64,000 bases of DNA from a virus (IMGVR_UViG_3300037067_013379:13497-77496); one strand, 5' to 3'. Positions 15,994 through 62,616 are shown, numbered from the stretch's first letter. Notes: generated by a model from the sequence alone, not told the origin. A program made the numbers and translations.

Positions 15994-16196
15994 TCCTTCC
16001 TCCGGAGCGGCACCAGATCGAGGCAGGGATCGTGCCGTTGGAGCACGTTCGGAGTTCGCTCGACGTCGCGTCGATCACCGTGTTCGCCCTTGTCGGATAT
16101 ATGACCAATAATGGGATTCCGATGGATGCTCGGATCACGGCCGACACGTTCCACGACCAGCCGTTCCTCGAACTCACCTGGGAGCCGCCATCGTGA
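15990..16196 (+). CDS. Small hypothetical protein
   Basis: Translationally coupled at both ends (ATGA/GTGA overlaps). Confidence 0.6.
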   Translation: MILPPERHQIEAGIVPLEHVRSSLDVASITVFALVGYMTNNGIPMDARITADTFHDQPFLELTWEPPS

Positions 16197-28717: not shown

Positions 28718-31700
28718 ATGGCGAAATCCGGGCAGGCATCAGTCGAAATTTTGGCTGACTTTGCCCGATTCGCGTCGACGTTCCAGCGGGATCTGAACGC
28801 GGCCCTCCGCGGCGTCACCCTCGACATGAGCGGGATCTCGGACCAAATCGCGAACGGGGTCCGCCGCGGGGTCGACGAGGCGAACCACGAGTTCCGGCGA
28901 CTAGGCGACCAGGCCGGCGACTCGTTCAACATCATCACACAGCAGTCGTCGCAGGCGGGCCGGTCGATGGCCGCGTCGTTCGCCGCCGCGGGTCGGCAGA
29001 TGTCGGGCATCGGCGACGACATGACGTTGGCGATCAGCCTCCCGATCGCCGCCGCGGGTACCGCGACCGTGCATACGGCCGGCGACTTCGAACAGGCCAT
29101 GAACAAGGTGAAGGCCGCGACGGAGTCGTCCGGGAAGGAGTTCACGGACCTCCGCAACCTGGCCATCGACCTCGGGTCGACCACGGCGTTCAGTGCGTCC
29201 GAAGCCGCGTATGCCATGAACGAGTTGGCGACGGCCGGTTTCGACACGAACGAGATCATGGGGGCGTTGCCGGGTGTCCTCGACATGGCCGCCGCCGGGT
29301 CGGTGTCGCTGTCGGACGCGGCCGAGATCGCATCGGGGATCCTGAACGGGTTCGGGTTCGCCGCCACCGACCTGTCGTACGTCAACGACGTTCTCGCGCG
29401 CGACTTCCTGGCCACCGCAACAAACCTGTCAGATTTGGGCGAGTCGTTCAAATATGTAGGGCCTACAGCGAAATCAGCGGGTTTGACGTTCACGGAGGTC
29501 GCGGCGGCGATCGGCCTGATGGGTAACGCCGGAATCAAAGGCTCGATGGCCGGCACCGCCCTCAACGCCTCCATCTCCCGCCTGCTCAAGCCGACGGGCG
29601 AGGTCGAGACGACCCTGCGGAACCTCGGCGTGACCGTCACAAACTCGTCAGGGAAACTCCTGCCCCTCGTCGACATCATGCGGCAGTTGGAGGCGGCGGG
29701 GGCCGACACCACCGACATGATCACCCTGTTTGGGCTCGAGGCCGGCCCGGACATGATGGCGTTGTTGTCCCAGGGATCCGCGGCCCTCGCCAACCTCGAC
29801 CAGCAACTACAGAACGCCGGTGGCACGGCCAAGAAGGTTGCCACGACGCAGATGGCGGGCTTCAACGGCTCGATGGACGAACTGTCGTCGTCCGCCGAGG
29901 GCCTGATGATCGCGATCGGTGACGCCGGCCTCCTCGGGTGGATGACGTCGCTCGTCGACGAGCTCACGCAGTTGACGATGAAGGCGTCGAAACTGTCCCC
30001 GACGCTGCTAAACATCGCGGTGATCGTCGCGGCCATCACTGCGGCGATCGGCCCGTTCCTCGCGATCTTCGGCCGGATGGCCACCGCGATCGGCGAGGGG
30101 ATCCTGGCGTTCAAGAAGTTCGGGTCGTGGGCGGTTCGGGTTGCGCCGTGGCTGGCGACGCTGTCCGGGCCGATCGGCTGGGTGATCGCCGCCGTCATCG
30201 CCCTCGCGATCGCCGCGGTGGTCGCGTACAACAAGTGCGAGGCGTTCCGGGTCGTCGTCGACCGGGCGTTCCGGGCCGTGGCCACGGCGGCCGTGTGGAT
30301 GTGGCAGAACGCGATTATGCCCGCGTTCAACTGGATCGTCGCGAACGCGAAGGTCGTTGGGGCCGCGATCGCCCGACTGTGGCAACAGTCTCAGCCGGTG
30401 TTCGCGGCATGGGGTGCGGCCATCCTCCGCATCTGGAACTCGGCGATAAAGCCGGCGCTCGGGCCGATCGGCGAGTCGTTCAAGACGGCCGGATCGGCGA
30501 TCTCGGCATTCTGGTCCGGCACGGCCCGGCCCGCCCTGGTGTCCCTGCTGGCGTTGTTCGCACGGGTCGCCGTGGCGGTCCGGGCATGGTGGGCGGGTAA
30601 CGGCGACACGGTCATGCGCTCGGCTGCGGCCGTCGTGACGTGGTTCGGTGGCGTGGCGTTCCAGGCGTGGACGCGGTTCATGGCGGTGCTGCGGGCGGTC
30701 GCCGCAGTGATCACGTGGGTGATCGTCAACGTCACGATCCCCCTTGCGAAGGCGCTGATATCGGTCATCCGGACCGTGGTCACGACCGTGATGTCGATGA
30801 AGAACGTGTGGATCGTGGTCGGCGCTGTGATCGTCGCGGCCGTGCTGGTCGTGGTCGCGATCGTCAAGGTTCTGTGGACGGCGTTCAACACGATCGTTCC
30901 GGCGGTTGCCGCCATCGTCACCTGGCTGGTCACCACGATCGTCGTCCCGATGTTCACCGCGCTGGGTGTGGCGGTCAAGGCGTTCGTCGCGGTGCTGACG
31001 TGGATGTGGACGTCGGTGATGTCCCCGGTGTTCTCGGCCCTCGGCGCGGCCCTGAACGTCGTCGGTGGCGTGGTCATCTGGCTGTGGACGTCGGTGTTTG
31101 TTCCGGCGTTCCGGGCGGTCGCGGCCGTGGTGTCGTGGATGTGGAACACGGTCCTGATGCCGGTGTTTACCGCGATCGCGGTAGCGATCGGCGCGGTCGT
31201 TGCTGTCGGCATATGGTTTTGGACCACGTTCGGTCCGATTTGGTTGGCTATTGGTAGCCTGATCTGGTCGTTGTGGTCCGGCGTCATTTCTGTCGTTTTT
31301 TCCCTGTTCAAACTTGCATTCACGGTGCTCGTTGCCGCCGCACAGGTCTGGTGGACGGTCGTCGGGGCGGTGTTCATGGCCGTCGCAGCCGTCATCGTCG
31401 CCGTGTGGTCCGGCGTGATCGCCCCGATCCTGAACGCGATCGGCGCCCTGTTCACCTGGCTATGGTCCGCGGCGATCCAGCCGGCCCTGACCGCTATCGG
31501 CGCGTTCTTCATGTGGCTGTGGACCGCGGCCATAGCCCCGGTCGTATCCGGCATCTCAAGCGCCTTCATGTCGATGTGGGCCGTGATCCAGGCCGTGTTC
31601 AACGCGGCCGTGTCGTTCATTCGCGCGGCGATCTCCCAGATCGTGGCGGCAGCCTCCGGCGTCGTCGGCTTCGTCAACACGATCTCCTCCCACTTCCAAA

Positions 31701-32299
31701 ACGCGGTCAACGCGATACGCGACAAGATCAACGCCGCTGTCGGGGTCGTCCGCGGCCTCCCCGGACAGATCACCTCCGCGGTCGGCAACCTCGGATCCCT
31801 GCTCTACAACGCCGGACAGAACGTCATCGACGGCCTCATCAGCGGAATCTCGAGCCGCATCGGATCCCTACGGGCGAAGATCGGGGAGGCGGCCGGGGCC
31901 ATCCGCGATTCGCTGCCGTTCAGTCCGGCGAAGGAAGGGCCGCTGTCGGGTTCCGGCGACCCCACCATCTCCGGCGGCAAGATCGTGCGGATGATCGGCC
32001 AGGGCATGGAGGCCCGGATACCAGACCTCCGGTACTCGGTCGACCGTGTCCTGGCCACCATGCCCGAACAACTCGTCGACATGAAGACACTGGCACCGGC
32101 CACCGCGACACTCACCCCGACGTCGACCCGCGTCCTCGTTCCGGCAACCGCCACCACAGCCGCAACCGCCGCCGGTGCCGGAACCACGGTCAACTACCAA
32201 ATCACGGTCAACGCACTCGACCCGCAGGCGGCGGCACGGGCCGTCATCGACGCAATCCAGACCTACGAGAGACGCAACGGCAAGGGGTGGCGGGCATGA
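28718..32299 (+). CDS. Tape measure protein (TP901-like)
   Basis: 1193 aa; FEQAMNKVKA, LGSTTAFSASEAA, GIKGSMAGT, Trp/Ala-periodic repeats and FSPAKEGPL. Confidence 0.95.
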   Translation: MAKSGQASVEILADFARFASTFQRDLNAALRGVTLDMSGISDQIANGVRRGVDEANHEFRRLGDQAGDSFNIITQQSSQAGRSMAASFAAAGRQMSGIGDDMTLAISLPIAAAGTATVHTAGDFEQAMNKVKAATESSGKEFTDLRNLAIDLGSTTAFSASEAAYAMNELATAGFDTNEIMGALPGVLDMAAAGSVSLSDAAEIASGILNGFGFAATDLSYVNDVLARDFLATATNLSDLGESFKYVGPTAKSAGLTFTEVAAAIGLMGNAGIKGSMAGTALNASISRLLKPTGEVETTLRNLGVTVTNSSGKLLPLVDIMRQLEAAGADTTDMITLFGLEAGPDMMALLSQGSAALANLDQQLQNAGGTAKKVATTQMAGFNGSMDELSSSAEGLMIAIGDAGLLGWMTSLVDELTQLTMKASKLSPTLLNIAVIVAAITAAIGPFLAIFGRMATAIGEGILAFKKFGSWAVRVAPWLATLSGPIGWVIAAVIALAIAAVVAYNKCEAFRVVVDRAFRAVATAAVWMWQNAIMPAFNWIVANAKVVGAAIARLWQQSQPVFAAWGAAILRIWNSAIKPALGPIGESFKTAGSAISAFWSGTARPALVSLLALFARVAVAVRAWWAGNGDTVMRSAAAVVTWFGGVAFQAWTRFMAVLRAVAAVITWVIVNVTIPLAKALISVIRTVVTTVMSMKNVWIVVGAVIVAAVLVVVAIVKVLWTAFNTIVPAVAAIVTWLVTTIVVPMFTALGVAVKAFVAVLTWMWTSVMSPVFSALGAALNVVGGVVIWLWTSVFVPAFRAVAAVVSWMWNTVLMPVFTAIAVAIGAVVAVGIWFWTTFGPIWLAIGSLIWSLWSGVISVVFSLFKLAFTVLVAAAQVWWTVVGAVFMAVAAVIVAVWSGVIAPILNAIGALFTWLWSAAIQPALTAIGAFFMWLWTAAIAPVVSGISSAFMSMWAVIQAVFNAAVSFIRAAISQIVAAASGVVGFVNTISSHFQNAVNAIRDKINAAVGVVRGLPGQITSAVGNLGSLLYNAGQNVIDGLISGISSRIGSLRAKIGEAAGAIRDSLPFSPAKEGPLSGSGDPTISGGKIVRMIGQGMEARIPDLRYSVDRVLATMPEQLVDMKTLAPATATLTPTSTRVLVPATATTAATAAGAGTTVNYQITVNALDPQAAARAVIDAIQTYERRNGKGWRA

Positions 32300-34969: not shown

Positions 34970-35971
34970 ATGGGACACTGGACCGACCTACCGGCCGTGT
35001 GGCACCAGGCGGCCGACAACTTTGGCGATGGCGACTACGTACCGAACGAGCCGGCCGACCGGATGGCGGCCGTCAACGGCATCGCCCTACACATCGCGCA
35101 GGGATCAGGCGCCGGAACCGTCTCCTGGTGCGCTAACCCGTCGTCGGACGTCGGCCCCCATTTCGTCGTCGACGAGTCCGGAAACATCACGCAAATGGTC
35201 GACACCGACGACTATTCGTGGTGCCAGGCCGCGGGAAACCGATACTGGTTGTCCGTCGAGAACGCCGGCTGGTCCGGCAACCCGTTGACGGCCGGGCAGA
35301 TCGAGGCAAACGCCAGGATCCTTGCCCGCGCACACCAGGTGTACGGAGTCCCGCTGCAGGCGACCGACAGCACGTCCGGGCGCGGTCTCGGCTGGCACGG
35401 CATGGGCGGCGCGGACTGGGGCGGCCACTACGACTGCCCCGGAGAGCCGATCAAGGCACAGCGCGGGGCAATCATCGCCCGAGCACAACAGATCATCGAT
35501 GGAGGGGGAAGTACGACCATGTCTGAACTTACCGGGTACGACCGCCGGGCCCTGGACAGCATCCTGTACATGCTGTACACGACCTTGGCCACCGATTCGG
35601 ACCCGATTATCTCCGTCCACGTCGTGGACGGCGCACAGAAAACGTGGCCGAACAAGCTCCGGCAGCGGCTGGTAGCGATCGCCTCCGACGCGGAGACGAT
35701 CAAGGCTGGGGTCGCCGACCTCCAGGCGCGGCCAGCCCCCACCGCGACGCTCACCGCGGGGGATCGGGCAGCCATCGCCACGGCTGCCGGCACGTCTGCG
35801 GCTGCGGTGATCGGCGCGCGGATCGACGACCTCGATGGGCAGATCGAGGTGGTACGCGGACTGGTCGGGGCTCTGATCACGGCGCTTGGTGGCGTCGGCG
35901 GTGTCCTGCAGACGCTGCAGTCCGTGCCGGCCCTGTCTACGGATGACGGGTCCGACGCGTCGGCGTCGTGA
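34970..35971 (+). CDS. Endolysin, N-acetylmuramoyl-L-alanine amidase (Amidase_2)
   Basis: IALH, PHFVVD, SVENAG and GLGWH..HYDCPG Zn-amidase motifs; AAGGAGG RBS. Confidence 0.9.
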   Translation: MGHWTDLPAVWHQAADNFGDGDYVPNEPADRMAAVNGIALHIAQGSGAGTVSWCANPSSDVGPHFVVDESGNITQMVDTDDYSWCQAAGNRYWLSVENAGWSGNPLTAGQIEANARILARAHQVYGVPLQATDSTSGRGLGWHGMGGADWGGHYDCPGEPIKAQRGAIIARAQQIIDGGGSTTMSELTGYDRRALDSILYMLYTTLATDSDPIISVHVVDGAQKTWPNKLRQRLVAIASDAETIKAGVADLQARPAPTATLTAGDRAAIATAAGTSAAAVIGARIDDLDGQIEVVRGLVGALITALGGVGGVLQTLQSVPALSTDDGSDASAS

Positions 35972-37770: not shown

Positions 37771-38141
37771 TCACTCCGTGGTGGCGTGTTGACGGTGGTA
37801 GGCGCGGAGGGCGGTGATGACGTCGTCGAGACGACCGGCCTCGACCGAGGTGACGAGGCGCTCGAACCGGGTCGGCTCGTTGTCCTTAAGGAGGGAGCGT
37901 GCCAGGACGTCTCGGTCTCGATGGGGCCGTTGCGGTAGCCGTCGAGTTCTGTCGCTCGGGTGCGGATCGCGTCGATGACGGCCGCACGCTGGGCTGGGGT
38001 GACGTTGTGCCGGGGGAAGGTCTTCGGGGTTGGGGTGGTGAAGCCGGCCCCGTGGCAGTTGAAGCACGCGCCGTGGGCGAACTGGCCGGTTCCGCCACAA
38101 CGCCGGCAGCGCCTGGCGCCCTTGGGTGTCGTGATGATCAC
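37771..38141 (-). pseudogene. DnaJ-like CxxCxGxG Zn-finger protein with an apparent 1-bp frameshift near 37903
   Basis: CRRCGGTG..CFNCHGAG. A protein-like C-terminus (ARSLLKDNEPTRFERL...) continues in another frame. Confidence 0.55.
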
Positions 38142-38172
38142 GGTTCCTCCTCGTTCGTCTTGGTTCACCCCG

Positions 38173-38215
38173 AACATACCAAGGGCGTTAGGGATACGCA
38201 ACCCCTAACGCCCTT
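38173..38215 (-). promoter_or_regulatory. SigA-type promoter TTGCGT-N17-TATGTT overlapping a palindromic CCCTAACGC operator
   Basis: Read from the sequence upstream of the GTG at 38141. Confidence 0.6.
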
Positions 38216-38233: not shown

Positions 38234-38782
38234 TCAAGCGAATATGGCGAACACGGCCGACGTCATGAACATCGACATCGCCCAGACGAGGGCGAGGGGG
38301 TAGACGACCCGGACCTCGACAGGACCCCCGCACTCGATGCGGTAGCCGTAGGGGAGGCGGACCGGGTCGCGGTTGAACGGCCCGTACGCGGGGGCTCCCC
38401 GGTAGGTGCAGCAGTCCCCGGCGATGTGGACGAGCCACCCGACCATGACGGCGAGGCCGATCCACCACAACGACGGGTGGATGAGACAGGCCAGTAACCC
38501 GAGGAGAAGGCCGTTGACGATTCCGGTGCTGATCCAGTGGGTGAGGCCCCTGTGCCCGAACGCGGCCTCGATCACGTCGGACATGCCGGGGATCAATCTG
38601 TTGATCTGTCGCCCTGGACGGCTGTCTGGGTTGTCGACGTCCGGGGCCTTCGCGGCGGCCCAGGTGAGGAGGGCACCGGCGACGGTCACGTAGTAGGGGT
38701 GGTTGAGGTCGAGCGCGCGGGCGAGTGTGTCACCGGACATCCACACGGCGAGGCCGGTCACGCCGTGGGTCTGCGTCATCAT
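38234..38782 (-). CDS. YdjM/DUF457-like membrane-bound metal-dependent hydrolase
   Basis: TH, PDVD, GHRGLTH and HIAGD motifs with TM segments. Confidence 0.85.
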   Translation of the reverse strand: MMTQTHGVTGLAVWMSGDTLARALDLNHPYYVTVAGALLTWAAAKAPDVDNPDSRPGRQINRLIPGMSDVIEAAFGHRGLTHWISTGIVNGLLLGLLACLIHPSLWWIGLAVMVGWLVHIAGDCCTYRGAPAYGPFNRDPVRLPYGYRIECGGPVEVRVVYPLALVWAMSMFMTSAVFAIFA

Positions 38783-39024
38783 GGCTGGTTGCTCCTTCGG
38801 TTGCCGCTCCCGGTCATCGACTCGATCGCGGCGAGGACGTGTTGGCGCTGGTACCGGCGGGTGTCCCGGGGGCCGTAGCGGGGGAGCGCGGGGACCTTGT
38901 AGCGGGTGAGCATCTCCCGGACGGTCCACCGGCTGAGGCCGGTCACGGCCACGAGGTCAGCGATCGTGACGATCGGGTTGACGTTCGTGGCCGTGACCCG
39001 GTTCCACCCTTTCGGGTTGGTCAC
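38779..39024 (-). CDS. Excisionase/MerR-like HTH protein
   Basis: VTIADLVAVTGLSRWTVREML...RRY; overlaps both neighbours. Confidence 0.6.
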   Translation of the reverse strand: MTNPKGWNRVTATNVNPIVTIADLVAVTGLSRWTVREMLTRYKVPALPRYGPRDTRRYQRQHVLAAIESMTGSGNRRSNQP

Positions 39025-39991: not shown

Positions 39992-40180
39992 ATGACAACC
40001 ACCGACCGCGAGCGCCAGCGCGTCATCGACGCTGTGACCATGGCGGCTCTCGATGGCATCGACGAGGCGGAGATGTACCGGCTCGTCCGTGCCGGTCTGG
40101 ACGCGGCCGGTCGGATCGAGGCGGCCCGTGTGCCGATCGACTGGGACAACCTCCCGACGATCGGATCTTTAGCCGCGTAG
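39992..40180 (+). CDS. Small hypothetical protein
   Basis: Short ORF followed by a terminator. Confidence 0.55.
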   Translation: MTTTDRERQRVIDAVTMAALDGIDEAEMYRLVRAGLDAAGRIEAARVPIDWDNLPTIGSLAA

Positions 40181-40235: not shown

Positions 40236-42485
40236 TCAGACGAGCGTCCGGTGGTAGTACCGGTCGTCGACCTTGTCCAACTCGCCGTACTTGGTGGTCA
40301 TGGCCTTCAATACCTCGAACAGGTTCCCCCGGCTGTACCGGAACCCCTCGGCGCGGAGGTTGGTCTCGATCTCCCCGGCCCGGAGGCCATTCGGATAGAT
40401 GTCGGTCAACATCAGGTTGAGGCGCTCGCGGAGCGTCGTGGTTGGCGCCTCGGGGATGGTCTCCCCAATATCGGGCATAACGGTCGGGGTGGTGGTGCCG
40501 GCCGGCTCGACGTCGACGGGGCAGTGCCCTTCGAGCATCATGTGCTGCCCGCTGGTCAACGCCTCGAAGATGTCCGTGTCGGACGGGGTCGCGGTTTGGG
40601 TGGTGGTCCGGGCCTCCGCCGCTGGTTTCCGCCCGGTTCCCAACCGGTCGACCTGGTTGAGTAGGTTCGCCGTGGCGGACCCGGCTCGTGGTGCGGCCGG
40701 GGCCTCGGTGGTTGTGGTGGCCGAGCGTCGTCCGGCCTGGGTGTCGGGGTCCTCGCCCCGTTCGATGGCCGCGAGGCGCTCGGCGCGTCGCTGGTGCCTG
40801 CGGGTGTAGGCGGTTCCGTTGGTGACATCGACGAGCGCCGGGTGGTCCAGGAGTTCCTCGTAGTTCTCCGGGTCGCGTCCGGCGAACACGTCAACGAGTT
40901 TGATATTGGCGCAGATCGCCTGTCCGGCCTGGTCGAGTTCGGGGCGGAGGTTCGCGCAGTCGATCGCGTGCCGTTCGACGAACACGGGGGGGACGTCGAC
41001 GGATCGGCCGACGACCGGCCGGTAGTCCTGCGTGGTCCGGTAGACCCACGCGGAGCCGGTATGCATGAGGCGGACCCGGCCGGGGTTCCGGCCGAGGACG
41101 TGATCGTATTCGCCTTCCTCGTCCATCCGGAGGCATACCCGGATGGAGCACACGGCGCGGAGGGCCTTGTCCAACAGGTCGGCCGTGCCGCGTAGGACGC
41201 TCATGATGACCCGGACGCCGGTTTCCCGGCCGATCTGGGCGAGGCTGGAGATCTGGGAGCAGACGATCTGGCCGAGGACGCTGGCGGCCTGGCGGACCTC
41301 CCCGCCCTCGTCGGTGATGACGACGACGGCTGGTTTCTTGGGGGACACGGGGAGGACGTTGGTTCCCGCGTCGCGGCGCATCTGGACGGCTTCGCGGTCG
41401 GTCTTGCGGCCCTTCGCGATACCCTTCGCGCACGCCATGATCACGGCAGATTCCTCTTCGGTGTCGCCCAACCAGTCGATGATCGGCTTGGACACCTTGC
41501 CTTCCTCGAACGGCCGGTTCCACGGTGCGCCGAGTCCGCCACCGTTGAAGTCGATGACCCAGATCAGGGCGTCCGTGCACCGGGCGAGGTACGCGATGAT
41601 GCGGTTCAGGAGGGTGGTCTTACCGCTGCCCGTGGTACCACCAATGATCATGCAGAAGATGCGGAGGCAGACCATGAACCAGTTGCCCTGCGGTGAGCGC
41701 ATGAGCGGGAAGGGGTCGTTGATCGACGCGGGTGCCGGGGTCTCGTGGTCGTCGAGAAGGATGTGGTCCTTCAGGCAGTCGCGGAGCATGACCCGGATGA
41801 CGGCCTCACACTGGTAGTCCCCGTCGAGGACGGTGACGACGCAGCCCTGTGGGAGTCGCAACTGTGGGGACGACTGGATCTTTCCGCACAGGTCGACGAG
41901 GTCCCGGGGTTCCATGCCCTCGACCAACGACACCCGGATGTCGATACCGTCGTCGGGGGTTTCCCACGGCTCGATCTTGATGACGGAGATGCTGGTCTTC
42001 GACAATCGGCGGAGGAGGGCCTGCATGTCTTCCTCCTGCCGGGTGCGTCCGGGGGGCAGGCCGTAGTTCGGGTCTGCCGCTGCGGCTGCCGCCTCGGCCT
42101 CGGCCCGTGCGGCTTTCTCCGCTGCCGCTGCCGCCTCCAGTTCCTCCTTGGTTGGGGGGATTGGGAGGGCGAGCATGACGGTGGTGCCGGTGGCGACGCC
42201 CACGGCGAGGACGACGACTCCGAGGGCCGTGACTCCGGCCGCTGCCGCGACGCTGGCCCAGATCGAGCCGGCCGCGACGAACAGGGCCGTCACGGCGGCT
42301 CGGGGTGCCGTGGTGCGGGTGTACCGGGCCTCGTACGTGGCGATGGCGAGGAGCATGCCGGCCGCTGCTGGTACCACGGCCGGGATGCCTGGGATGGTGC
42401 GGCATGCGAGTGCTGTGACGACCGGACCGAGGAGGCCGATCGTCGCGTAGGACGGGACGTGGTTGCTTGTGGTGGTGTGTTTCAC
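40236..42485 (-). CDS. traB: FtsK/SpoIIIE-family DNA translocase, Streptomyces TraB/Tra-type conjugation protein
   Basis: N-terminal TM helices, Walker A GGTTGSGKT, Walker B VVITDE, GRETGVR and C-terminal wHTH: the TraB architecture. Confidence 0.8.
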   Translation of the reverse strand: MKHTTTSNHVPSYATIGLLGPVVTALACRTIPGIPAVVPAAAGMLLAIATYEARYTRTTAPRAAVTALFVAAGSIWASVAAAAGVTALGVVVLAVGVATGTTVMLALPIPPTKEELEAAAAAEKAARAEAEAAAAAADPNYGLPPGRTRQEEDMQALLRRLSKTSISVIKIEPWETPDDGIDIRVSLVEGMEPRDLVDLCGKIQSSPQLRLPQGCVVTVLDGDYQCEAVIRVMLRDCLKDHILLDDHETPAPASINDPFPLMRSPQGNWFMVCLRIFCMIIGGTTGSGKTTLLNRIIAYLARCTDALIWVIDFNGGGLGAPWNRPFEEGKVSKPIIDWLGDTEEESAVIMACAKGIAKGRKTDREAVQMRRDAGTNVLPVSPKKPAVVVITDEGGEVRQAASVLGQIVCSQISSLAQIGRETGVRVIMSVLRGTADLLDKALRAVCSIRVCLRMDEEGEYDHVLGRNPGRVRLMHTGSAWVYRTTQDYRPVVGRSVDVPPVFVERHAIDCANLRPELDQAGQAICANIKLVDVFAGRDPENYEELLDHPALVDVTNGTAYTRRHQRRAERLAAIERGEDPDTQAGRRSATTTTEAPAAPRAGSATANLLNQVDRLGTGRKPAAEARTTTQTATPSDTDIFEALTSGQHMMLEGHCPVDVEPAGTTTPTVMPDIGETIPEAPTTTLRERLNLMLTDIYPNGLRAGEIETNLRAEGFRYSRGNLFEVLKAMTTKYGELDKVDDRYYHRTLV

Positions 42486-42512
42486 GGCGTCCTCCTCTCC
42501 GGGTTGGTTTGG

Positions 42513-43853
42513 TCAGGTGTCCTTTTGGGCTTCGCCGACGTCGGAGCGCTTCTCGCGTTCGACCCCGCCCCTCATTCCGGCGAGGCGGTCTTCGTCGCCG
42601 GTGTGTTCGGTGCGGTATAGGGGGCCGAGGGCGTTCGCGTTGCTGGCGATACGTCCGATGACCTCGGAGATCTTCGGCAGTTTGCTCAGGGACGCCTGGA
42701 CGTCTGCCAGGAGGGCGACGAGTTTCGGCGAGGCTGGCAGTTCCTGCTCGCCTTGGGTGTGGAGGCGGACGACGGCCTGGGCGATGTTTTCCAGGTCGGC
42801 TTCGACGCGTCGGAGTTCGCGCTGCTTCTCCAGGAGCGCTTGTTCGATGGATGGGAGGCACCGGCCCCATGCTTGCAGGCTCGGGGTGCCGTGGGTTTTG
42901 ACCATCTTGGTTGATCCTCCTTGGGGGTTGGCCGGTGTGTCGGGCGTTTCCTGACCGGCCGGTTCTTCTTCGTCGGTGTCGTCGGTGTCTTCGGGTTCGG
43001 TGTTGTTGGGGTCGTCCTCCTCGTCTTTGTCCTTGGGGCCGGCTGCGTCCCAGCCCTTCTTGATTTCTTCGGCGGTTCGGGTGAGGAATCCGGGGCGGTC
43101 GGAGTCGTCGTCGTTGCCCTTGTTCTTGCTTCGGTGGTCCTTGTCGCGGCCGTGGTGGTCCTTGTCGCGTCCGCCTCCAGGGCCGAAGAGGTCTCCGAGC
43201 CCGTTGCCGCGTCCTCCGGTTCCGTTGCCGCGTCCCCGGCCTCCGTTGGTGCCGGTGCCTCGTCCGCCTCCGGTGCCTCCGAAGAGACCGCCGAGGCCGC
43301 GTCCGCGTCCGCGTCCTCCGCCGGTGCCGTGTCCGCCGGTGCCGGTGCCGCGTCCGCGTCCTCCGAGGATGTTTCCGAGGCCGCGTCCCCGGCCGGTGCC
43401 GGTGCCGTGTCCGCTGGTGCCGGTGCCGCGTCCGCGTCCTCCGAGGAGTCCGGCGAGCCCGCGTCCCCGGCCGGTGCCGGTGCCGTGTCCGCTGGTGCCG
43501 GTGCCGCGTCCGCGTCCTCCGAGGATGTTTCCGAGGCCGCGTCCCCGGCCGGTGCCGGTGGCGCCTCTGCGGTTCCGTCCGAACTTGGCGAGGAACACGA
43601 TCAGGGCGATCACGGCGATCGCGGCGTGGATGATGAGCCATCGTGTCCAGGAGCCGAGGGCTGCGACGAGGGCGAGTTCGGCCGTGGCTACGACCAGCGC
43701 GATCACGATCACGGTCTCGCGGTTGATCTTCGGACGGCGACGCTGTGTAGTTGGTTTTGGGGTGGTGGTTGGGTCGGTTGGGGTTGGTGTGGGTGCGACC
43801 GGTGGGGTCGGTGGTGGTGGTGTGGGGGCGGGTGGTGGTGTCGGCGTAGTCAT
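42513..43853 (-). CDS. Membrane-anchored Gly/Arg-repeat protein with a helical C-terminal domain (transfer/spread accessory)
   Basis: Two TM segments, 26-aa GR/GT repeats, acidic linker; directly upstream of traB. Confidence 0.7.
   Translation of the reverse strand: MTTPTPPPAPTPPPPTPPVAPTPTPTDPTTTPKPTTQRRRPKINRETVIVIALVVATAELALVAALGSWTRWLIIHAAIAVIALIVFLAKFGRNRRGATGTGRGRGLGNILGGRGRGTGTSGHGTGTGRGRGLAGLLGGRGRGTGTSGHGTGTGRGRGLGNILGGRGRGTGTGGHGTGGGRGRGRGLGGLFGGTGGGRGTGTNGGRGRGNGTGGRGNGLGDLFGPGGGRDKDHHGRDKDHRSKNKGNDDDSDRPGFLTRTAEEIKKGWDAAGPKDKDEEDDPNNTEPEDTDDTDEEEPAGQETPDTPANPQGGSTKMVKTHGTPSLQAWGRCLPSIEQALLEKQRELRRVEADLENIAQAVVRLHTQGEQELPASPKLVALLADVQASLSKLPKISEVIGRIASNANALGPLYRTEHTGDEDRLAGMRGGVEREKRSDVGEAQKDT
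43200..43570. repeat. 78-bp-period in-frame tandem repeat
   Basis: About 3-4 units encoding GGRGRGTGTSGHGTGTGRGRGLGNIL variants. Confidence 0.85.
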
Positions 43854-43874
43854 CGTTCCTCACTGTGTGTGACG

Positions 43875-43996
43875 TGTCTGGGGTGAGTGGTGTCTGGGTG
43901 TACTGGCGGTTTGGAGAAGGCCGGTTTCCAGGGATTTCGCGGCTGTCGGGGGGGTGTCGGGGTGACTGTCACCCCGTACACCCTGACACCCTGACA
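43875..43996. repeat. Cluster of TGTCNGGG octamers (4 direct, 2 inverted)
   Basis: Direct copies at 43875, 43891, 43944 and 43955; inverted CCCTGACA at 43981 and 43989. Confidence 0.6.
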
Positions 43997-44023
43997 ATAA
44001 CACTGTGTAGATGGTGGCGCGTT

Positions 44024-44236
44024 TTAGAATGCGGACGCGATCCAGTTGATGAACGTGGTGACGCCGGAGACGACTCCGGCGATCCAGCCTCCGAATGCGG
44101 TGTCGGTGTCCCCGGCGATGTAACCGAGGGTGACGAACGCGAGGACCATCGCGCCGGTGGCGAGTCGTCTTGCGGAGAAGAAGATGTAGAGGCCGGCTGC
44201 TATGGCGAGGAGCGCGGCGAAGACGGACGAGGTCAC
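44024..44236 (-). CDS. Small hydrophobic membrane protein (Spd/pilin-like size)
   Basis: 70 aa, almost entirely hydrophobic; GGAGG RBS; in the transfer operon. Confidence 0.7.
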   Translation of the reverse strand: MTSSVFAALLAIAAGLYIFFSARRLATGAMVLAFVTLGYIAGDTDTAFGGWIAGVVSGVTTFINWIASAF

Positions 44237-44532
44237 GGTTTTGCCTCCAGATCGACGGTGTAGCGGGTGGTGGTGCCGTTGCGCATGGTTTCGACCTCGA
44301 ACGTCGTGTGGTTGCGGAGGAGTTCGAGGGTCCAGACGCGGGCCTGGTCACGGGCGGGCTGCTCGGTGACGAACGTCGCGGGTTCGCGGAGTCGTCGGGT
44401 GTAGCAGTCGATGGCTGTGACGCGGTACGCCTGGGTGTTTCGGTAGAGGGTGATCTGCGCTCCCATGGGGGTCCGAACGGTGATCCACTCGTTGGTGTCG
44501 AGTGGGGTCTTGTTGTTCGGATGTTCCGTCAT
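44233..44532 (-). CDS. Hypothetical protein, first gene of the transfer operon
   Basis: GGGGAG RBS; GTGA overlap with the next gene. Confidence 0.7.
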   Translation of the reverse strand: MTEHPNNKTPLDTNEWITVRTPMGAQITLYRNTQAYRVTAIDCYTRRLREPATFVTEQPARDQARVWTLELLRNHTTFEVETMRNGTTTRYTVDLEAKP

Positions 44533-44559
44533 CGCGCTCCCCCTAAATGGTCTCCCGTC

Positions 44560-44588
44560 AGTATACAGGCATGCCAGGAAATAGCCAA
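44560..44588 (-). promoter_or_regulatory. SigA/HrdB-type promoter of the transfer operon
   Basis: TTGGCT-N17-TATACT on the minus strand. Confidence 0.7.
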
Positions 44589-44613
44589 CCTAGGGGGGCA
44601 GACTTGCGCGGGT

Positions 44614-45370
44614 CCCGTACGGCGTACGGGAACACGCCCCGTACGCCCCGTACGCCGAACCCCCGTACCAGGCAACCCCGTACGCCCCCGTACGCCCGTA
44701 CGCCGTACGGGTCGGCCGTACGCCCCCGTACGCCCCGTACGCGAACACCGGGGACCCCGTACGCCCCGTACGTCGACACCCCGTACGGCCCCGGGCCGCG
44801 ACTCCCCGTACGCCCCGTACGCCCGTACGCCCGCGCACCGTACGACCCCGCCTGTACGCCCATGCCCGTACGCCCCCCGCCCGTACGGGGACGGTTGGTG
44901 GGTACGCCGTACGGGCTGTACTGGTTGGCGTCCCCGTACGGGGCCGTACGCCCGCACGGCCCCGTACGGGGTACGGCCCAGGGCAACGGTTGGTGTACGG
45001 CCGCGTACGGCCCGGCCGTACGGGAATCGCGTACGGGTACCGATCCGCGTACGGGCGGGTACGCCGTACGGCCCGTACGCCCGTACGGCGGTCGGACCGT
45101 ACGCCCCGATCCCGTACGCCCCGTACACCAACCCCCGTACGGCCGCGTACGCCCCCGTACACCAACCACCCCGTACGCGTACCCCGTACGGCCCGTACGC
45201 CCGTACGCCGGCCCCCGTACGGGCCGTACGGTCGGGATCGCGCCGTACGGGAAACCGCCCCGAACCATGATCGGATCGGGGCGTACGGGGCGTGCCGTAC
45301 GGGGTCGTACGGGACCCGGACATGCGTACGCCCCCCGGTGGGTACGGGGGGCGTACGGGCCGTACGGGGT
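44614..45370. repeat. Dense array of ~60 GTAC-core repeats (mostly CCGTACG / CGTACGG)
   Basis: Manual count of about 60 GTAC in ~750 bp with irregular spacing; no consistent reading frame. Confidence 0.95.
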
Positions 45371-45383
45371 GGTGTGGCGCACC

Positions 45384-45581
45384 TCACCATCCATCGGGAT
45401 TGGTCAACATGTCGAGTGCCTCGGAGACGATCGTCTTCTCGTCGAGCCACGCGCGGGCCTGTTCGATGCCCTCGGCGACGAGTTCCCGGACCCGGGCCTC
45501 CGGCTCGTCCTGGCCGTAGAACGCGGCGTACTCGGCGATCGCTCGGGCGGCCCGGTATCCGGGGCGGCTGATGTCACTCAC
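45384..45581 (-). CDS. Small hypothetical protein
   Basis: AGGAGG RBS; 65 aa. Confidence 0.6.
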   Translation of the reverse strand: MSDISRPGYRAARAIAEYAAFYGQDEPEARVRELVAEGIEQARAWLDEKTIVSEALDMLTNPDGW

Positions 45582-45635
45582 GATGTCCTCCTACGGGGCG
45601 GCCCCCGGTGGTGTGCCGGGGGCCGGTGGGTGGTG

Positions 45636-45986
45636 TCACGCGGCACGGAGCGCCGTGGCGAGGTCCTCCGGGGTGGTGTCCTCGGTGAGGATGCGCGTGC
45701 GGTTCCGGAGGGTGGTGATGGCGGCCCGGACGCGGGTCTCGGTCGTGGCCGTCCGGACGGTCGCCATGAACTTGATGATCGTGTCGTACAACCGGGCGTC
45801 CGCCTTCGCGGCCCGTTCCACGGCAGCGGCCGTGGTGTACCGCTGGCCGGCTACCCGCGTGGGGCGGTTGGTGTTAGCGGCGAGGATCTTGTTGACGAGG
45901 CGGAACGCCGTCCGGTTCGCGTCGATCGGGCCGATCGCGGTGTAGAGGTCGTTGATGGTGGTGAGGTGGTTCGTCGTCTGCGTCAT
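45636..45986 (-). CDS. Hypothetical protein (probably leaderless)
   Basis: ATG 7 nt after a -10 box; a hairpin follows the stop. Confidence 0.7.
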   Translation of the reverse strand: MTQTTNHLTTINDLYTAIGPIDANRTAFRLVNKILAANTNRPTRVAGQRYTTAAAVERAAKADARLYDTIIKFMATVRTATTETRVRAAITTLRNRTRILTEDTTPEDLATALRAA

Positions 45987-45993
45987 GCCCCAT

Positions 45994-46022
45994 ACGCTAC
46001 CCGTGGCGTTAGGGGTTGTCGA
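45994..46022 (-). promoter_or_regulatory. Promoter TCGACA-N17-TAGCGT with a CCCCTAACGC operator in the spacer
   Basis: Nearly identical to the promoter at 62581-62609. Confidence 0.7.
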
Positions 46023-46066
46023 GCTATAACGCTCATACCTTTGGGCTTGATGCTGCGGAGTCTTCT

Positions 46067-46119
46067 GCCACCCATCCACCGGCCCCCGGTGGTGTGCCTG
46101 GGGCCGGTGGATGGGTGGC
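46067..46119 (-). terminator. Long hairpin after the Spd-like gene
   Basis: 20-bp arms GCCACCCATCCACCGGCCCC...GGGGCCGGTGGATGGGTGGC. Confidence 0.75.
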
Positions 46120-47378
46120 TAGTTCTGGCCGTTGGCGATCATCGTGATCGCCGTGGTGACCCGCTCCGCGACCGGCAGACCGGCGTCGAGCGAGTGAGCG
46201 CAGGTGACGATGTCCAGTACGCGCTTCGCCTGCCGGGCGAGGACCTTGTCGTCTCCGACGGTGCAGGCGCGCTCGATCGCGGACCGGCACAGGGACCCGG
46301 CCTGGATCAGACCGGTCAGGGCGTCCCAGTGGCGAACGACGATGTCCGCGTCGCGCTCGGCCGTGGTCATGGCGAGTGCCGTGACGGTCCGGCGTGCCGG
46401 GGTGCTGGTGATCGCGGGCTGGTTGCCGTTGTGCCGGTGGCCGTTGATCGGGGTGGTCGGGAGGTCGAGGACGGGGTTGCCGTTGGTCCGGTGGCCGTTG
46501 GGGGCCGCTGGTAGGGCCTCGACGTCGACGGTGGTCTCGACGGCCGGGTGCTCGATGGTGGGGGCCTCGGTGTCGCTGGCGACCCGTACGGCCTCGGTGC
46601 CGGTCTTGGTGACGGCCGCGATGCGGGCCTCGATCCCGTAGGCCAGTTCGAGGTGTGCGATCACGGCGGCTGCGGTTGTGGGGTCGGCCTTGAGCATCAT
46701 GCGACGGACCCGGCGACGCTTGCGCTCCTTGAACCACCGGGCGGAGGCGAGCATGTACGCGGCGTTCGTCAACTTCTCCTCGAACCGCTTGGCCTCGGCC
46801 TCGTCGACGGTTGTCTTCCCGGGCTTCCACGCGCCGAGGCGAATCAGGAGGTTGAGGGGGGTCCACATGAACCGGCCCCGGTTCTCCTCGCTCTGCTCCG
46901 CCGTCAACTTGATCCAGTGGAGGAGCGCGACCCCGAGGGGGAGGAGGATACGTAGTGCGATCTCGACGATGTTGGTGGACGCGAGGGCTACCAGGGTGCC
47001 CTCGGCCACGGCGACGATCCAGAACGCGGTTCCGAATGGTCCGGGTCGGCCGTGGCGGTCTTGGAAGTCCTTGGCGAGCCGGAAGAAGTTGACCATCAAG
47101 CCTTCGGCCACGGCGCATACGAAGATCGCGAGCCACCAGGGCAGGGGCATGGACAACTTGGTTGTGAGGACCCAGAACATGCCCTCGGCGGTGAGGGCCA
47201 GGACCATGAGGGTTACGGCGTTGCTGAGGACGTCGCGGTCTTTGGTGGTGGTCTTGCGGCCGGTGACGCGTCGGATGGTGGCGATGAGGAGGGCGAGGGC
47301 GAGGCCGAGGGCCGCGATGATCGCGTAGTGTCCGTACTCCCCCCACATGTCGATGATGGTGTTGATGTCTAGGTTCAC
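46119..47378 (-). CDS. SpdB2/DUF2637-like multi-TM plasmid spread protein
   Basis: Several TM helices, then a helical region, a Pro/Thr-rich linker and a possible C-terminal HTH; clustered with traB. Confidence 0.55.
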   Translation of the reverse strand: MNLDINTIIDMWGEYGHYAIIAALGLALALLIATIRRVTGRKTTTKDRDVLSNAVTLMVLALTAEGMFWVLTTKLSMPLPWWLAIFVCAVAEGLMVNFFRLAKDFQDRHGRPGPFGTAFWIVAVAEGTLVALASTNIVEIALRILLPLGVALLHWIKLTAEQSEENRGRFMWTPLNLLIRLGAWKPGKTTVDEAEAKRFEEKLTNAAYMLASARWFKERKRRRVRRMMLKADPTTAAAVIAHLELAYGIEARIAAVTKTGTEAVRVASDTEAPTIEHPAVETTVDVEALPAAPNGHRTNGNPVLDLPTTPINGHRHNGNQPAITSTPARRTVTALAMTTAERDADIVVRHWDALTGLIQAGSLCRSAIERACTVGDDKVLARQAKRVLDIVTCAHSLDAGLPVAERVTTAITMIANGQN

Positions 47379-47533
47379 GGCTTCTCCCCGGTGTGTGTCG
47401 CGGCGTGTTTGTGCGTCCCCCGGAGTCTACCGTGCCCAATATAAATCCGCAACTTCATGGTGAGCATTTATTCGGGTGGTGACACGGGACGGCCCGACCC
47501 ATCGTCGTGACCGGGTCGGGCCGTCGTGGTCGG

Positions 47534-48130
47534 TTAGAAGACCAGGCACCGCATCGTGTCGGACCGGGACCGCTTGACCTCGTACATCGCCACGTCGGCA
47601 TCGTGGATCATCTGGTGGAGGTCGATGCCGTCCTCGACCACCCTCGCTCCACACGACACGACGACCGTGATCTCGCCGTCCCGGGTCGGGATCGGGCAGG
47701 CCGCGATGTCCGAGACGATCCGGTTGAGGGTGCCCAGGACGTCCCAGCCGGACGGAATGAGGAGAAGGAACTCGTCGCCCCCGTACCGAACGCCGTAGCA
47801 CCCGGACGCGATCAGGACGGACGCGACGTGGGTGATCACCCGGTTGCCGGTCTTGTGCCCGTAGGTGTCGTTGATCCGCTTCAGGAAGTCGACGTCGAGG
47901 AACGCCACGGCCCCGACCATCGCGGTCGGCTGGCGAAGGCCAGACCAGAACTCTCTGAGCCAGCGCAAGTTGTGCAGGCCGGTCAGTTCGTCGATGTCGC
48001 GGCATCGCAGTTCCTGGTGCAATTCGTCGATCGTCTTCTCAAGGGAGTCGATCACGGTGTCACGGCGGGCGAGGTCGGCTCGTAGCGCGTCGATGGTGAC
48101 CTGGAGTCTGGTGATGTCGTTGGTGGTCAT
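47534..48130 (-). CDS. GGDEF diguanylate cyclase with an N-terminal coiled coil
   Basis: DELTGLHN, FLDVDFLKRINDTYGH..G, RYGGDEF and ADVAMYEVK. Confidence 0.93.
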   Translation of the reverse strand: MTTNDITRLQVTIDALRADLARRDTVIDSLEKTIDELHQELRCRDIDELTGLHNLRWLREFWSGLRQPTAMVGAVAFLDVDFLKRINDTYGHKTGNRVITHVASVLIASGCYGVRYGGDEFLLLIPSGWDVLGTLNRIVSDIAACPIPTRDGEITVVVSCGARVVEDGIDLHQMIHDADVAMYEVKRSRSDTMRCLVF

Positions 48131-49400: not shown

Positions 49401-49589
49401 CGTTTCCGCAGGTCGCACCATCGACGGATTTTCAGGGCATGGTAAATCCGTCAACGGGCGTGACCTGCGGAAAGGGGGTGTTTCCGCAGGTCGCACCATC
49501 GACGGCTGGTTAGGGCCTAACCAGCCGTCGTTAAAAGAAGAAGTACCTCTTTTAAGAAGTACCAAGAAGAAAAACCCCCCTACCCCCCG
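49401..49589 (+). repeat. Intergenic inverted copy of the rep-internal origin-like region, with a 31-bp palindrome
   Basis: Matches the reverse complement of 17718-17860. TTTCCGCAGGTCGCACCATCGACGG occurs twice. CGACGGCTGGTTAGG-G-CCTAACCAGCCGTCG lies at 49500-49530. Confidence 0.9.
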
Positions 49590-56891: not shown

Positions 56892-57947
56892 ATGCCTACA
56901 AGGACGTTCCGTCACACTACCGAGGAAAACGACATGGAAGCCACGGACACAAAGAAAACCGGACAGATGGCTATCAACCATGCTGCCCGGATAGACCGCG
57001 CGCTCACCGTTGGCGGGTACCTCACCTCGGCCGACGGCCGGTACAAGGAATCAACGGCGAACCTGTACGCGGCAGCATGGAGCGCGTTCGTTGACTGGTG
57101 CCAAAGCGCCGGTCGAACCGCCATGCCCGCGACCCCCGAGACGATAGCCACGTACGCCGTTCATCTGCTCGACGCCGGATATGTACCCGACACGATCAAG
57201 TGTCGGATCACGGCGATCAGGGCACGGCACCGAATCATGGGCCACCCCGTACCGGACAACGTCCCGGCCTGGACCGTGCTCTGTGGGGCGGAGTCTAGTC
57301 GCGTCCGGCCCGTGGTCAATGGCATCACCCGAACGGATCTCCTGACGGCAATTCGGTCATGCCCGAACACCACCCTCGGTATCCGGAACCGGGCGCTCGC
57401 CCTCCTCACCTGGGACGTCCTACTCCCCCTCCCGGACATCGTCGCCCTCGACGTCGACGACATCACCGACCCATGGGACGAGACCCCGATGACGATCCGA
57501 ACCACCCCGGCACGCGACATCGCCCACGACCACACCACGGCCCTCGACGTCGAGTGCCAGCGCTGCCACGCCGGCCGTGAACGGGCCGCAGGCGACACGT
57601 CGGCGTGCCCAGCGTGCGCGATACGCGCATGGGTCCGGGAACTCCACCTCGCCGGTATCCGCCATGGCGCACTGTTCCGCCCGGTCGACCGGTTGGGTGT
57701 GATCGCCGGGTCCGGGATACGCAGGTCGGGAAGCACCGCGCCGGACGCCCGGCTCACCGTCCGCTCGGTGCACCGCGTCTGGGCGCGTCTCGTAGCCGAC
57801 TCCGGCATCACCCCATGTACCCCACGGGCACTCCGCCTCGGCGGAGCCCGGGACCGGGTCGACCGGGGCGAACCCGTCCGGTCCGTCATCGACCGGGCCT
57901 CGTGGTCCCCGAACACGGCCTCGGTCGTAACTCGTCTCGCGATGTAA
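56892..57947 (+). CDS. Cre-like tyrosine recombinase homolog lacking catalytic residues
   Basis: SAM-like N-domain (TANLY..AW..F..WC, PATPETI..Y), GIRNRAL, CPACAIRAW and LFRPVD. The expected catalytic R, H and Y are replaced. The true start may be ~56932. Confidence 0.75.
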   Translation: MPTRTFRHTTEENDMEATDTKKTGQMAINHAARIDRALTVGGYLTSADGRYKESTANLYAAAWSAFVDWCQSAGRTAMPATPETIATYAVHLLDAGYVPDTIKCRITAIRARHRIMGHPVPDNVPAWTVLCGAESSRVRPVVNGITRTDLLTAIRSCPNTTLGIRNRALALLTWDVLLPLPDIVALDVDDITDPWDETPMTIRTTPARDIAHDHTTALDVECQRCHAGRERAAGDTSACPACAIRAWVRELHLAGIRHGALFRPVDRLGVIAGSGIRRSGSTAPDARLTVRSVHRVWARLVADSGITPCTPRALRLGGARDRVDRGEPVRSVIDRASWSPNTASVVTRLAM

Positions 57948-59938: not shown

Positions 59939-61302
59939 CAGTTACCTCCAAGGAAGCCCCTGGATTTATCCATGGGGAGGAATTGGACTTCCCGCGTCAG
60001 CGGGATCTGAATAGGCGACCGCGAAAGCGGTAGCCGTTCCTTAGCCGTGATCTCGCACCTTGGTAAAATTGGTGCATGCGAACGGCGTACAAATGTCGGG
60101 CCTACCCGACCCCCGACCAGGTGGCGGTACTCAACCGCACCTTCGGGTGTGTGCGCTACGTGTGGAACAACGTCCTGAACTGGCGCCACCAGCGCTGGCA
60201 CGTCGAGCACCAGTCGACCTCGTACGCGGAATCCGACCGGCACCTGACCGAACTCAAGAAATTGCCGGACTCCGCGTTTCTGGGTGAGGTGTCGTCGGTT
60301 CCGTTGCAGCAGACCCTGCGACACCAGCACACGGCGATGACCGCGTTCTGGCAGAAACGCGCCCGCTACCCAAGGTTCAAGTCCCGCCATGGTCGGCAGT
60401 CCGCGTCGTACACCCGCTCTGGTTTCCGGTGGCGTGGTGGGGAGTTGTTCCTGGCGAAGACCAGCGGGGCCCTGCCGTTTGTGTGGTCCTGGCCGAACAT
60501 TGACCCCGCCACCCTTGATCCGACGATGGTGACCGTGTCCCGCGACCCGGATGGCCGCTGGTATGTGACCCTCGCCGTGGACGTCGACGCCCCCGAACCA
60601 GTGGAGCCGACAGCTGGCCCGGTTGGGGTCGACCTCGGGTTGAAGCACTTCGCGGTGCTGTCGACCGGGGAGAAGATCGCGCACCCGAGGCACATGGAGG
60701 CCCGGGAACGCAGGTTGAAGCACTACCAGCGGATCCTGGCCCGCAAACAGCGCGGTTCGAACAACCGGCGGAAGGCCAAGCAGCGGGTGGCCCGCGCCCA
60801 CTCCCGGGTTCGTGACGCCCGCCGGGACTTCCTCCACCAAACCAGCACTCGTCTGGTTCGCACGCACATGGCGATCGCCGTGGAGGACCTGAACGTCGCG
60901 GGTATGGTCCGCAACCACTGCCTGGCGAAAGCCATCTCGCGTACGGGTTGGGCCGAGTTCCGGGGGATGCTCGCGTACAAGGCCCACCGTGACGGCCGCA
61001 CCCTCGCCGTGGTGGACCGCTGGTACCCCAGCTCGAAAACCTGCTCGAACTGTGGGCACCTGTTGGCCCACCTCAGCTTGAGTACGAGGACGTGGCAGTG
61101 CCCGTCCTGCGGCACCCGGCACGACCGGGACCACAACGCCGCTCGGAACATCATGGTCGCGGCCGGGCTGGTCGAGACTGGAAACGCCTGCGGAGCTGGT
61201 GTAAGACACGACGGGAGACCGTCTGTGCGACCGGCTGTGAACCAGGAAACCCAACCTGTGAAGGTGGGAATCCCCCGGCTTTAGCCGTGGGGAGCAAGTC
61301 AA
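59939..61302 (+). mobile_element. Non-autonomous IS200/IS605-family (IS1341-type) element inserted 3' of TCAC
   Basis: Left-end hairpin GAAG-CCCCTGG..CCATGGGG; right-end GAAT-CCCCCGGC..GCCGTGGGG..TCAA; no tnpA; no target duplication. Confidence 0.85.
60076..61284 (+). CDS. tnpB: TnpB RNA-guided endonuclease
   Basis: HTH AYKCRAYP, RuvC GVDLG / AVEDL / DRDHNAA, and Zn finger CSNCG..CPSCG. Confidence 0.95.
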   Translation: MRTAYKCRAYPTPDQVAVLNRTFGCVRYVWNNVLNWRHQRWHVEHQSTSYAESDRHLTELKKLPDSAFLGEVSSVPLQQTLRHQHTAMTAFWQKRARYPRFKSRHGRQSASYTRSGFRWRGGELFLAKTSGALPFVWSWPNIDPATLDPTMVTVSRDPDGRWYVTLAVDVDAPEPVEPTAGPVGVDLGLKHFAVLSTGEKIAHPRHMEARERRLKHYQRILARKQRGSNNRRKAKQRVARAHSRVRDARRDFLHQTSTRLVRTHMAIAVEDLNVAGMVRNHCLAKAISRTGWAEFRGMLAYKAHRDGRTLAVVDRWYPSSKTCSNCGHLLAHLSLSTRTWQCPSCGTRHDRDHNAARNIMVAAGLVETGNACGAGVRHDGRPSVRPAVNQETQPVKVGIPRL

Positions 61303-62427: not shown

Positions 62428-62580
62428 ACCACCACCAACCCGCCCACGGCCCCCGGCACTCCACCGGGGGCCGTTGCCACACCCAACGACACCAGCACAC
62501 CCCGAACGACCCGCAGCGGCCCCGTGGGACATCCCCGAGAAGACCCCCCGCTGTAAGCCCAAACGTATGAGTGCTACAAC

Positions 62581-62609
62581 TCGACAACCCCTAACGCCAC
62601 GGGTAGCGT
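62581..62609 (+). promoter_or_regulatory. Promoter TCGACA-N17-TAGCGT with a CCCCTAACGC operator
   Basis: ATG lies 7 nt downstream; near-identical copy at 45994-46022. Confidence 0.7.
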
Positions 62610-62616
62610 ATGGGGC

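Follow-up and report, generated by a model that had tools for sequence, protein, structure and literature searches.

We analysed a 64,000-nt stretch (the window, to which positions refer unless L003 or another record is named) of the viral record IMGVR_UViG_3300037067_013379, 13497-77496, where a tailed phage carries, at 40236-48130 on the minus strand, what appears to be a Streptomyces-type DNA transfer module built around a TraB-like ATPase. The data were assembled contigs, and no conclusion draws on the unpublished genomes G106 and G179. The viral record (77,496 bp) has a terminal 168-bp direct repeat with one mismatch between its copies, and the presence of this repeat at both record ends indicates a closed genome of 77,328 bp. 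PHROG and profile searches identified the virion set of a siphophage, in which a plus-strand virion and lysis block at 2763-35971 includes TerL (2763-4442), portal (5230-7254), major capsid (19071-20891), tape measure (28718-32299) and amidase (34970-35971), and matches to the major tail protein and a head-tail adaptor were also found. A full set of virion genes on a circular replicon, as in a phage-plasmid, is therefore present, and the complete head, tail and lysis set named by an earlier sequence-only reading of this DNA was recovered.

The core of the module is a 749-amino-acid (aa) open reading frame (ORF; 40236-42485, minus strand) predicted from PHROG, fold and profile matches to be a TraB-type FtsK/SpoIIIE DNA translocase. 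PHROG places it as FtsK/SpoIIIE-like (E 5e-46); its score against Pfam FtsK_SpoIIIE was under the family cut-off. The N-terminus has three hydrophobic segments (residues 31-105), where the structure model shows helical hairpins, and the motor has an FtsK fold with intact Walker A (GGTTGSGKT) and Walker B (ITDEGGE) motifs. The C-terminus is modelled as a helix-helix-helix-wing domain; the fold matches listed for it were all of winged-helix type, each weak (E at least 0.09), and HTH_33 was found in two TraB homologs. The transmembrane (TM) anchor and C-terminal winged helix described earlier thus held up, the latter in the model. A profile of the protein matched pZL12.71c (E 9e-38), with a motor identity of just 26%. 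pZL12.71c, as the sole FtsK-like gene of its record, is probably the tested tra gene. Anchor, motor with Walker A and B, winged helix and homology to the Tra protein of a characterised element are thus all found in the predicted protein, as in TraB of Streptomyces type.

Upstream of traB lies the gene for a TraA-like partner (42513-43853, minus strand; 446 aa), assigned by profile comparison, with two TM segments, a glycine-rich repeat linker and a conserved C-terminal helical domain. This gene is found immediately upstream of traB in nearly all loci. Its C-terminal family is matched between clades at an hhalign probability of 96%, and the profile reaches pZL12.72c (E 1e-7 among 13,000 decoys); no significant match was seen between this domain and TraA of pJV1, and in Pfam and NCBIfam no family for TraB, TraA or Spd reached the cut-off. 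Immediately downstream of traB is a small antisense ORF (39992-40180, plus strand), and a similar small antisense gene occurs at many loci of the clade; given that no TraR is present, this ORF is a candidate regulator. A YdjM-family membrane hydrolase (38234-38782, minus strand) follows, as is usual just downstream of traB in the TraB clade.

The module contains a non-coding, 750-bp array (44616-45366) which, by word counts, holds 48 CGTACG cores, mostly as CGTACGG(G). The density of CGTACGG is 81 words per kb in the array and 0.37 per kb elsewhere, a difference of about 220-fold; 23 cores are in forward and 12 in reverse orientation, 4 are palindromic and 9 neither. In each 20-kb locus we sought the non-codon 7-mer cluster with the strongest over-representation. 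As a positive control, this procedure recovered CCGCACA, the clt word published for pJV1. Of the 41 loci, 24 had their top repeat cluster in the zone 1.5-4.5 kb upstream of Walker A, where 6.1 would be expected; the zone had been fixed following an initial inspection and the loci are in part related, which makes the simulated p optimistic.

The repeat word is specific to the lineage and tracks helix 3, the recognition helix, of the winged-helix domain. Helix SRGNLF(E/A)VL goes with CGTACG and SRGNLFNIL with CGGACG; RETV and RQTI types go with CGGATC or CGGACC, HAATIGRW with CGC(C/T)AC, and SRSAV and SRQTV types with GGAACC. In two cases the word agrees with the helix and conflicts with the motor tree. 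The ATPases of L032 and L043 group with those of L023 and L039 (support 100/99), yet have a HAATIGRW helix and the word CGCTAC; L024 lies elsewhere in the ATPase tree, yet shares its helix type and GGAACC with L023 and L039. According to PMC3583192, helix 3 of TraB is reported to recognise 8-bp repeats, and the match between word and helix is consistent with that report. Since word and recognition helix go together even where the ATPase tree disagrees, the evidence supports a predicted role of the array as a clt locus, a short-repeat cluster adjoining tra and specific to its TraB helix. This helix/word code appears to be new, and its pairs are ready predictions of TraB specificity.

The array also bears on whether the ATPase has a role unrelated to intercellular movement of phage DNA, such as host takeover, superinfection exclusion through a pore of Kil type, or assistance with DNA entry or packaging. 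Such a role would fit the category in which PHROG files the FtsK-like proteins (moron/host takeover) and the toxicity of unregulated plasmid traB (PMC4447253) in a genome with no TraR. A lineage-specific array that adjoins the gene and is matched to its DNA-binding helix implies, however, action on the phage's own DNA, and we regard an unrelated role as improbable.

The remaining module genes are small or membrane-bound. The first gene after the promoter encodes a soluble 99-aa protein (44233-44532, minus strand), placed by synteny and kept in the phage family, which had no family match in our searches. It is followed by a 70-aa membrane protein (44024-44236, minus strand) with one TM segment called, which by TM prediction and synteny is Spd-like in size and position only. 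The promoter itself is of sigma-70 type (TTGGCT-N17-TATACT; 44560-44588, minus strand) and is conserved in four relatives. Farther upstream is a 419-aa protein (46119-47378, minus strand) with 4-5 TM segments. It had no direct Pfam match, but a feature search scored it 0.95 to DUF2637 clusters and 0.83 to SpdB_N clusters, and relatives have DUF2637 at its position; a multi-TM protein of SpdB2/DUF2637 type, as in Spd systems, is therefore predicted here. With the pZL12.71c homology and the array, this agrees with the TraB/clt/Spd-type system that had been proposed from the sequence. The outermost gene encodes a 198-aa GGDEF protein (47534-48130, minus strand; domain match E 2e-23). We considered it as a part of the transfer system and rejected this: the further TraB loci that were searched did not show it, though it is kept in its own phage family, and it is best seen as lineage cargo.

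Between array and spdB-like gene lies an insert of two genes (65 and 116 aa; 45384-45986, minus strand) with its own phage-type promoter and hairpin. It varies among relatives, being absent from G001 and replaced in G002, and is outside the transfer module. The motif of this promoter type, CCCCTAACG, occurs about 15 times across the genome. A hairpin, GGCCCCCGG (46081-46105), stands after the spdB-like gene and belongs to a type with nine copies in the genome, as against 0.1 in shuffles; one copy, at 40197, is directly after traB. Since this hairpin, the two-gene insert, the array and the separate promoter at 44588-44560 divide the block, it appears to form two transcription units. The FtsK, membrane genes, repeats and GGDEF gene of the minus-strand operon described earlier are thus all there, but not as a single operon. 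The phage-type promoter and gene start at 45937-46048 are indeed shared, inverted and at 81% over 112 nt, with 62555-62666. The sequence-only reading had used this match to argue that the module is integrated in the phage; the match is real but weak as proof, because it serves the variable insert.

Synteny and selection are better evidence that the module belongs to the phage. Two sequencing studies, one perhaps of the source sample, yielded contigs (20.2 and 14.2 kb) that extend unbroken and at flat depth from the tape-measure gene through traB into the traA-like gene. The order GGDEF, spdB, array gap, 99-aa gene, 70-aa gene, partner, traB, YdjM and tail genes is kept at 85% and at 55% TraB identity, and gene order is conserved in five or more relatives. 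The dN/dS ratio of traB was 0.13-0.18 and that of the remaining module genes 0.14-0.32, close to the 0.13-0.16 of the capsid. In a maximum-likelihood tree, the TraB of the window falls in a fully supported group of phage contigs within a Micromonosporaceae clade, which also includes integrated prophages and terminase-free integrative elements. Because the tree was built with no outgroup of chromosomal FtsK and the branches of pZL12, pJV1 and pIJ101 are long, it lends support to the Micromonosporaceae clade and none to deep relationships.

These data bear on the possibility that the module is a chance neighbour, through misassembly or insertion of a separate actinomycete integrative and conjugative element (AICE). 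TraB proteins of the clade do occur on non-phage integrative elements. This explanation is nevertheless largely refuted by the contigs from two studies, the gene order shared by at least five relatives to as little as 55% identity, the absence of an integrase and the phage-type hairpins after traB and spdB, and we consider it very improbable. Of the integrase, excisionase and att sites of an AICE, we found just an excisionase/MerR-like helix-turn-helix (HTH) ORF at 38779-39024 and a degenerate Cre-like gene. By gene content, order and selection, the module thus appears real, intact and native to the phage, as the sequence-only reading had held. Because the tree mixes element types while order and selection are conserved, the module seems to move among plasmids, elements resembling integrative and conjugative elements (ICE-like elements) and phages, and yet to have been resident in this phage lineage for long.

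The best cultured match of the capsid is Actinoplanes phage phiAsp2 (50%), and the nearest TraB relatives with a named host come from Micromonospora, Polymorphospora, Plantactinospora and Actinoplanes. The host is therefore probably a mycelial (filamentous), Micromonospora-like member of the Micromonosporaceae. Near-identical DNA was found in groundwater, wastewater and landfill runs. A DNA search of 401 Micromonosporaceae genomes for the host gave just traB-level and short generic matches, with no spacer and no prophage.

The combination of virion genes and TraB is already known. PMC3583192, PMC4487206 and PMC7157519 describe pZL12, or phage ZL12 (NC_013420), as a Streptomyces plasmid-phage. 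Like the window, pZL12 has virion genes and an ordered three-part locus of a membrane protein of about 400 aa, a TM/low-complexity partner and an FtsK-like Tra. Homology extends to the partner (72c) and Tra (71c), while pZL12.73c has no sequence match to the 419-aa protein; pZL12 also differs in capsid family and Rep, and the host of the window phage is probably in another family, the Micromonosporaceae. Plasmids pSVH1, pJV1, pIJ101 and pWTY27 (PMC4447253, PMC3583192) share with the window a TM-motor-winged-helix TraB, nearby short-word repeats, a multi-TM SpdB-type protein and small membrane ORFs, whereas the window has a distant TraB subfamily (long branches), a far larger array (48 copies, 750 bp) with a palindromic core and mixed orientation, no TraR and a siphophage setting. 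Streptomyces phages Hiyaa, Spocter, Keanu and Galactica and Thermobifida phage P1312 have the same traA-like/traB pair at about 30% identity, on a different capsid type and in another host family. Hiyaa has an upstream 423-aa membrane protein and, like the window, no integrase or ParA matches, whereas P1312 has an integrase; our literature search found no study on the module of these five phages. The traA-like gene of Hiyaa (L001 9405-11468, upstream of the FtsK gene) appears mis-annotated, as the record has only an antisense ORF (gene 100) and a C-terminal piece (gene 101). Deposited 87-99 kb Streptomyces plasmids (NZ_CP108279 of S. atratus, NZ_CP108469) carry GntR-DUF2637-partner-TraB beside terminase and capsid genes, NZ_CP108279 having the capsid family of the window and a GntR gene; such plasmids are uncharacterised, yet circular and known to be extrachromosomal in cultured hosts. 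The nearest TraBs with named hosts (39-45%), in elements of M. costi, Polymorphospora rubra, Micromonospora NPDC006766, Plantactinospora B6F1 and G326, have the same partner gene, but these prophages and ICE-like elements integrate by intact tyrosine or other integrases, and two have no terminase nearby. In G326 the terminase-free element with a sister TraB (C1 6918118-6955344) is also present as a separate contig (C3; 20,191 bp) that joins the two ends of the element without the middle 17 kb. The wider TraB family also occurs on small non-phage plasmids. Since pZL12, several deposited plasmids and cultured phages already unite virion genes with a transfer locus of this kind, the novelty which the sequence-only reading implied was overstated. 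What appears new is a Micromonosporaceae-type family without the usual maintenance and control genes.

For replication, the genome has a putative HTH initiator with internal iteron-like repeats (17220-18284, minus strand; phrog_270 E 3e-5, HTH_36-like), in agreement with the rep-type gene reported earlier; initiators of this type occur widely in integrating phages as well. The rep gene sits amid the head genes, on the opposite strand and immediately ahead of the capsid gene, and has this position in G001, G002 and G004 too. The iteron segment inside rep (17718-17889) has a free-standing inverted copy at 49416-49587 (172 nt, 78%), which is present also in G001 and G002 and is a candidate second origin or copy-control site. 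No polymerase or helicase families were seen among the other ORFs in the PHROG matches listed, and neither a tyrosine integrase nor a serine recombinase was found in the closed genome, so that the lack of an intact integrase noted for the window extends to the whole genome. To this we add a Cre-like tyrosine-recombinase homolog (56934-57947, plus strand) without equivalents of Cre R173, H289 and Y324. Its family has at least 41 members, with the catalytic Arg, His and Tyr missing in all homologs listed, and a dN/dS of about 0.2 indicates purifying selection; the family is a candidate DNA-binding pseudo-recombinase. A 36% homolog adjoins parA on a 132.6-kb contig of Micromonospora isolate WMMC273, a hint towards extrachromosomal elements.

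The single most likely reading, which we hold tentatively, is that of a persistent, pZL12-like conjugative plasmid prophage of a mycelial Micromonosporaceae host. The circular genome would make virions and also persist outside the chromosome, replicated by the iteron-bearing Rep and host enzymes. A membrane-anchored TraB hexamer would load on the CGTACGG array via its winged helix and pump the intact double-stranded circle into a neighbouring hypha, and with the SpdB-like and small membrane proteins would move it across cross-walls. Such spreading could stand in for ParAB, as in small multicopy Streptomyces plasmids. Host, TraB-array binding and transfer are inferred here, and the plasmid state most of all. 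This reading is favoured by sister TraBs on non-phage elements and plasmids, Streptomyces plasmids with terminase and capsid, the array position, the helix/word match, the lack of integrase, polymerase and helicase, and the dead-Cre homolog beside parA. Several results weigh against it. The Rep had no match to plasmids; ParA, ParB_N and XRE repressor were not found in the closed genome, nor was a GntR-type TraR/KorA (PF00392) of a Kil-Kor system; and the Cre-like protein, judged by its residues, cannot resolve dimers by known chemistry, and neither an active dimer-resolving recombinase nor a ParA/ParB partition system was thus found. pZL12, by comparison, has ParA, ParB, a Cre-like recombinase with the first catalytic Arg and a GntR regulator, none of which was found in working form here. 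Classic clt loci are direct 8-bp repeats of one polarity, whereas the window array is of mixed orientation. No copy of the element (its Rep or close DNA) was found in the 401 Micromonosporaceae genomes, the first search being at reduced sensitivity. Persistence as a plasmid prophage, as proposed from the sequence, thus stays conjectural.

The same missing lysogeny markers fit a second possibility, that there is no stable plasmid state and that, in a lytic or transiently carried phage, TraB/clt/SpdB would drive replicating genomes past cross-walls into adjoining compartments, and into hyphae in contact, ahead of lysis, so that each infection becomes larger. Consistent with this, the plaque-isolated Streptomyces phages Hiyaa, Spocter, Keanu and Galactica have the same gene pair, no tyrosine integrase, serine recombinase domain or ParA was found in the Hiyaa record, and SpdB2 homologs on some actinophages have been proposed to assist the spreading of phage DNA (Thoma et al. 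2015, PMC4447253). Sister TraBs in integrated prophages, ICE-like elements and plasmids, however, tie the family mostly to persistent elements, and one of the small HTH proteins may be a repressor that escaped recognition. It also counts against an infection-only life that temperate phages, more often than others, depend on the host for replication and carry cargo such as GGDEF. We consider this possible, and rank it after the persistent plasmid prophage. Alternatively, TraB may serve segregation only: as FtsK/SpoIIIE do, it would distribute an extrachromosomal prophage across septa and to the spores, with no crossing to other strains. The FtsK motor fold and a genome without ParAB would suit this, and clt-type repeats would be required either way, but homology to the pZL12 transfer gene and the SpdB-type pore protein favour transfer and spreading, and the studied TraB proteins are conjugative (PMC4447253); we judge it unlikely, though less so than a role unrelated to phage DNA movement. 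Summed over these three DNA-moving models, the module very probably acts on the phage's own DNA.

Several observations concern other parts of the genome. Three runs have an extra C at 37901, so that the broken ORF 37771-38201 is probably a sequence error; runs also disagree at 35755 and 35760. An HTH/endonuclease-like ORF (8135-9055, minus strand) lies antisense inside the MuF gene (7247-9190, plus strand), in an AT-richer stretch, and a glycosyltransferase/methyltransferase-like cluster (11332-16966) lies between prohead and capsid genes. At the genome start, outside the window, L003 4645-6978 encodes a 777-aa protein with a DNA methylase domain and a pyridoxal-phosphate-dependent enzyme domain, 94% conserved in G002; together with a QueE-like radical SAM gene at 2002-2739 it points to possible DNA hypermodification. 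An IS605-type TnpB (Cas12f-like) gene (60076-61284) is 54% identical to a copy in Thermobifida phage P1312 and has no match in G001 or G002. L003 2038-3150 and 7035-7904, both outside the virion block, encode a further wall hydrolase (GH25) and a rubrerythrin/ferritin-like protein.

Surveys of phage-plasmids look for conjugation by relaxase and type IV secretion system (PMC7969092), and would therefore miss TraB-type transfer on phages; pZL12 counts as a singleton in PMC7157519. The module is maintained by selection in a Micromonosporaceae-type phage family of 70-83 kb that is frequent in metagenomes from landfill, wastewater and groundwater, and virion-free spread may be regular in phages of mycelial bacteria. 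If this is true, phage DNA would evade receptor-based resistance and could mobilise host DNA with clt-like words. It is conceivable, if doubtful, that a phage lineage without integrase, ParAB, repressor and TraR has domesticated a plasmid pump for cell-to-cell movement of its genome in the mycelium, in infection or when carried, bypassing receptors and lysis, with the dead Cre possibly a DNA-binding regulator or a factor in segregation. If so, Hiyaa-type cultured Streptomyces phages would share the pump strategy, which would make it testable now.

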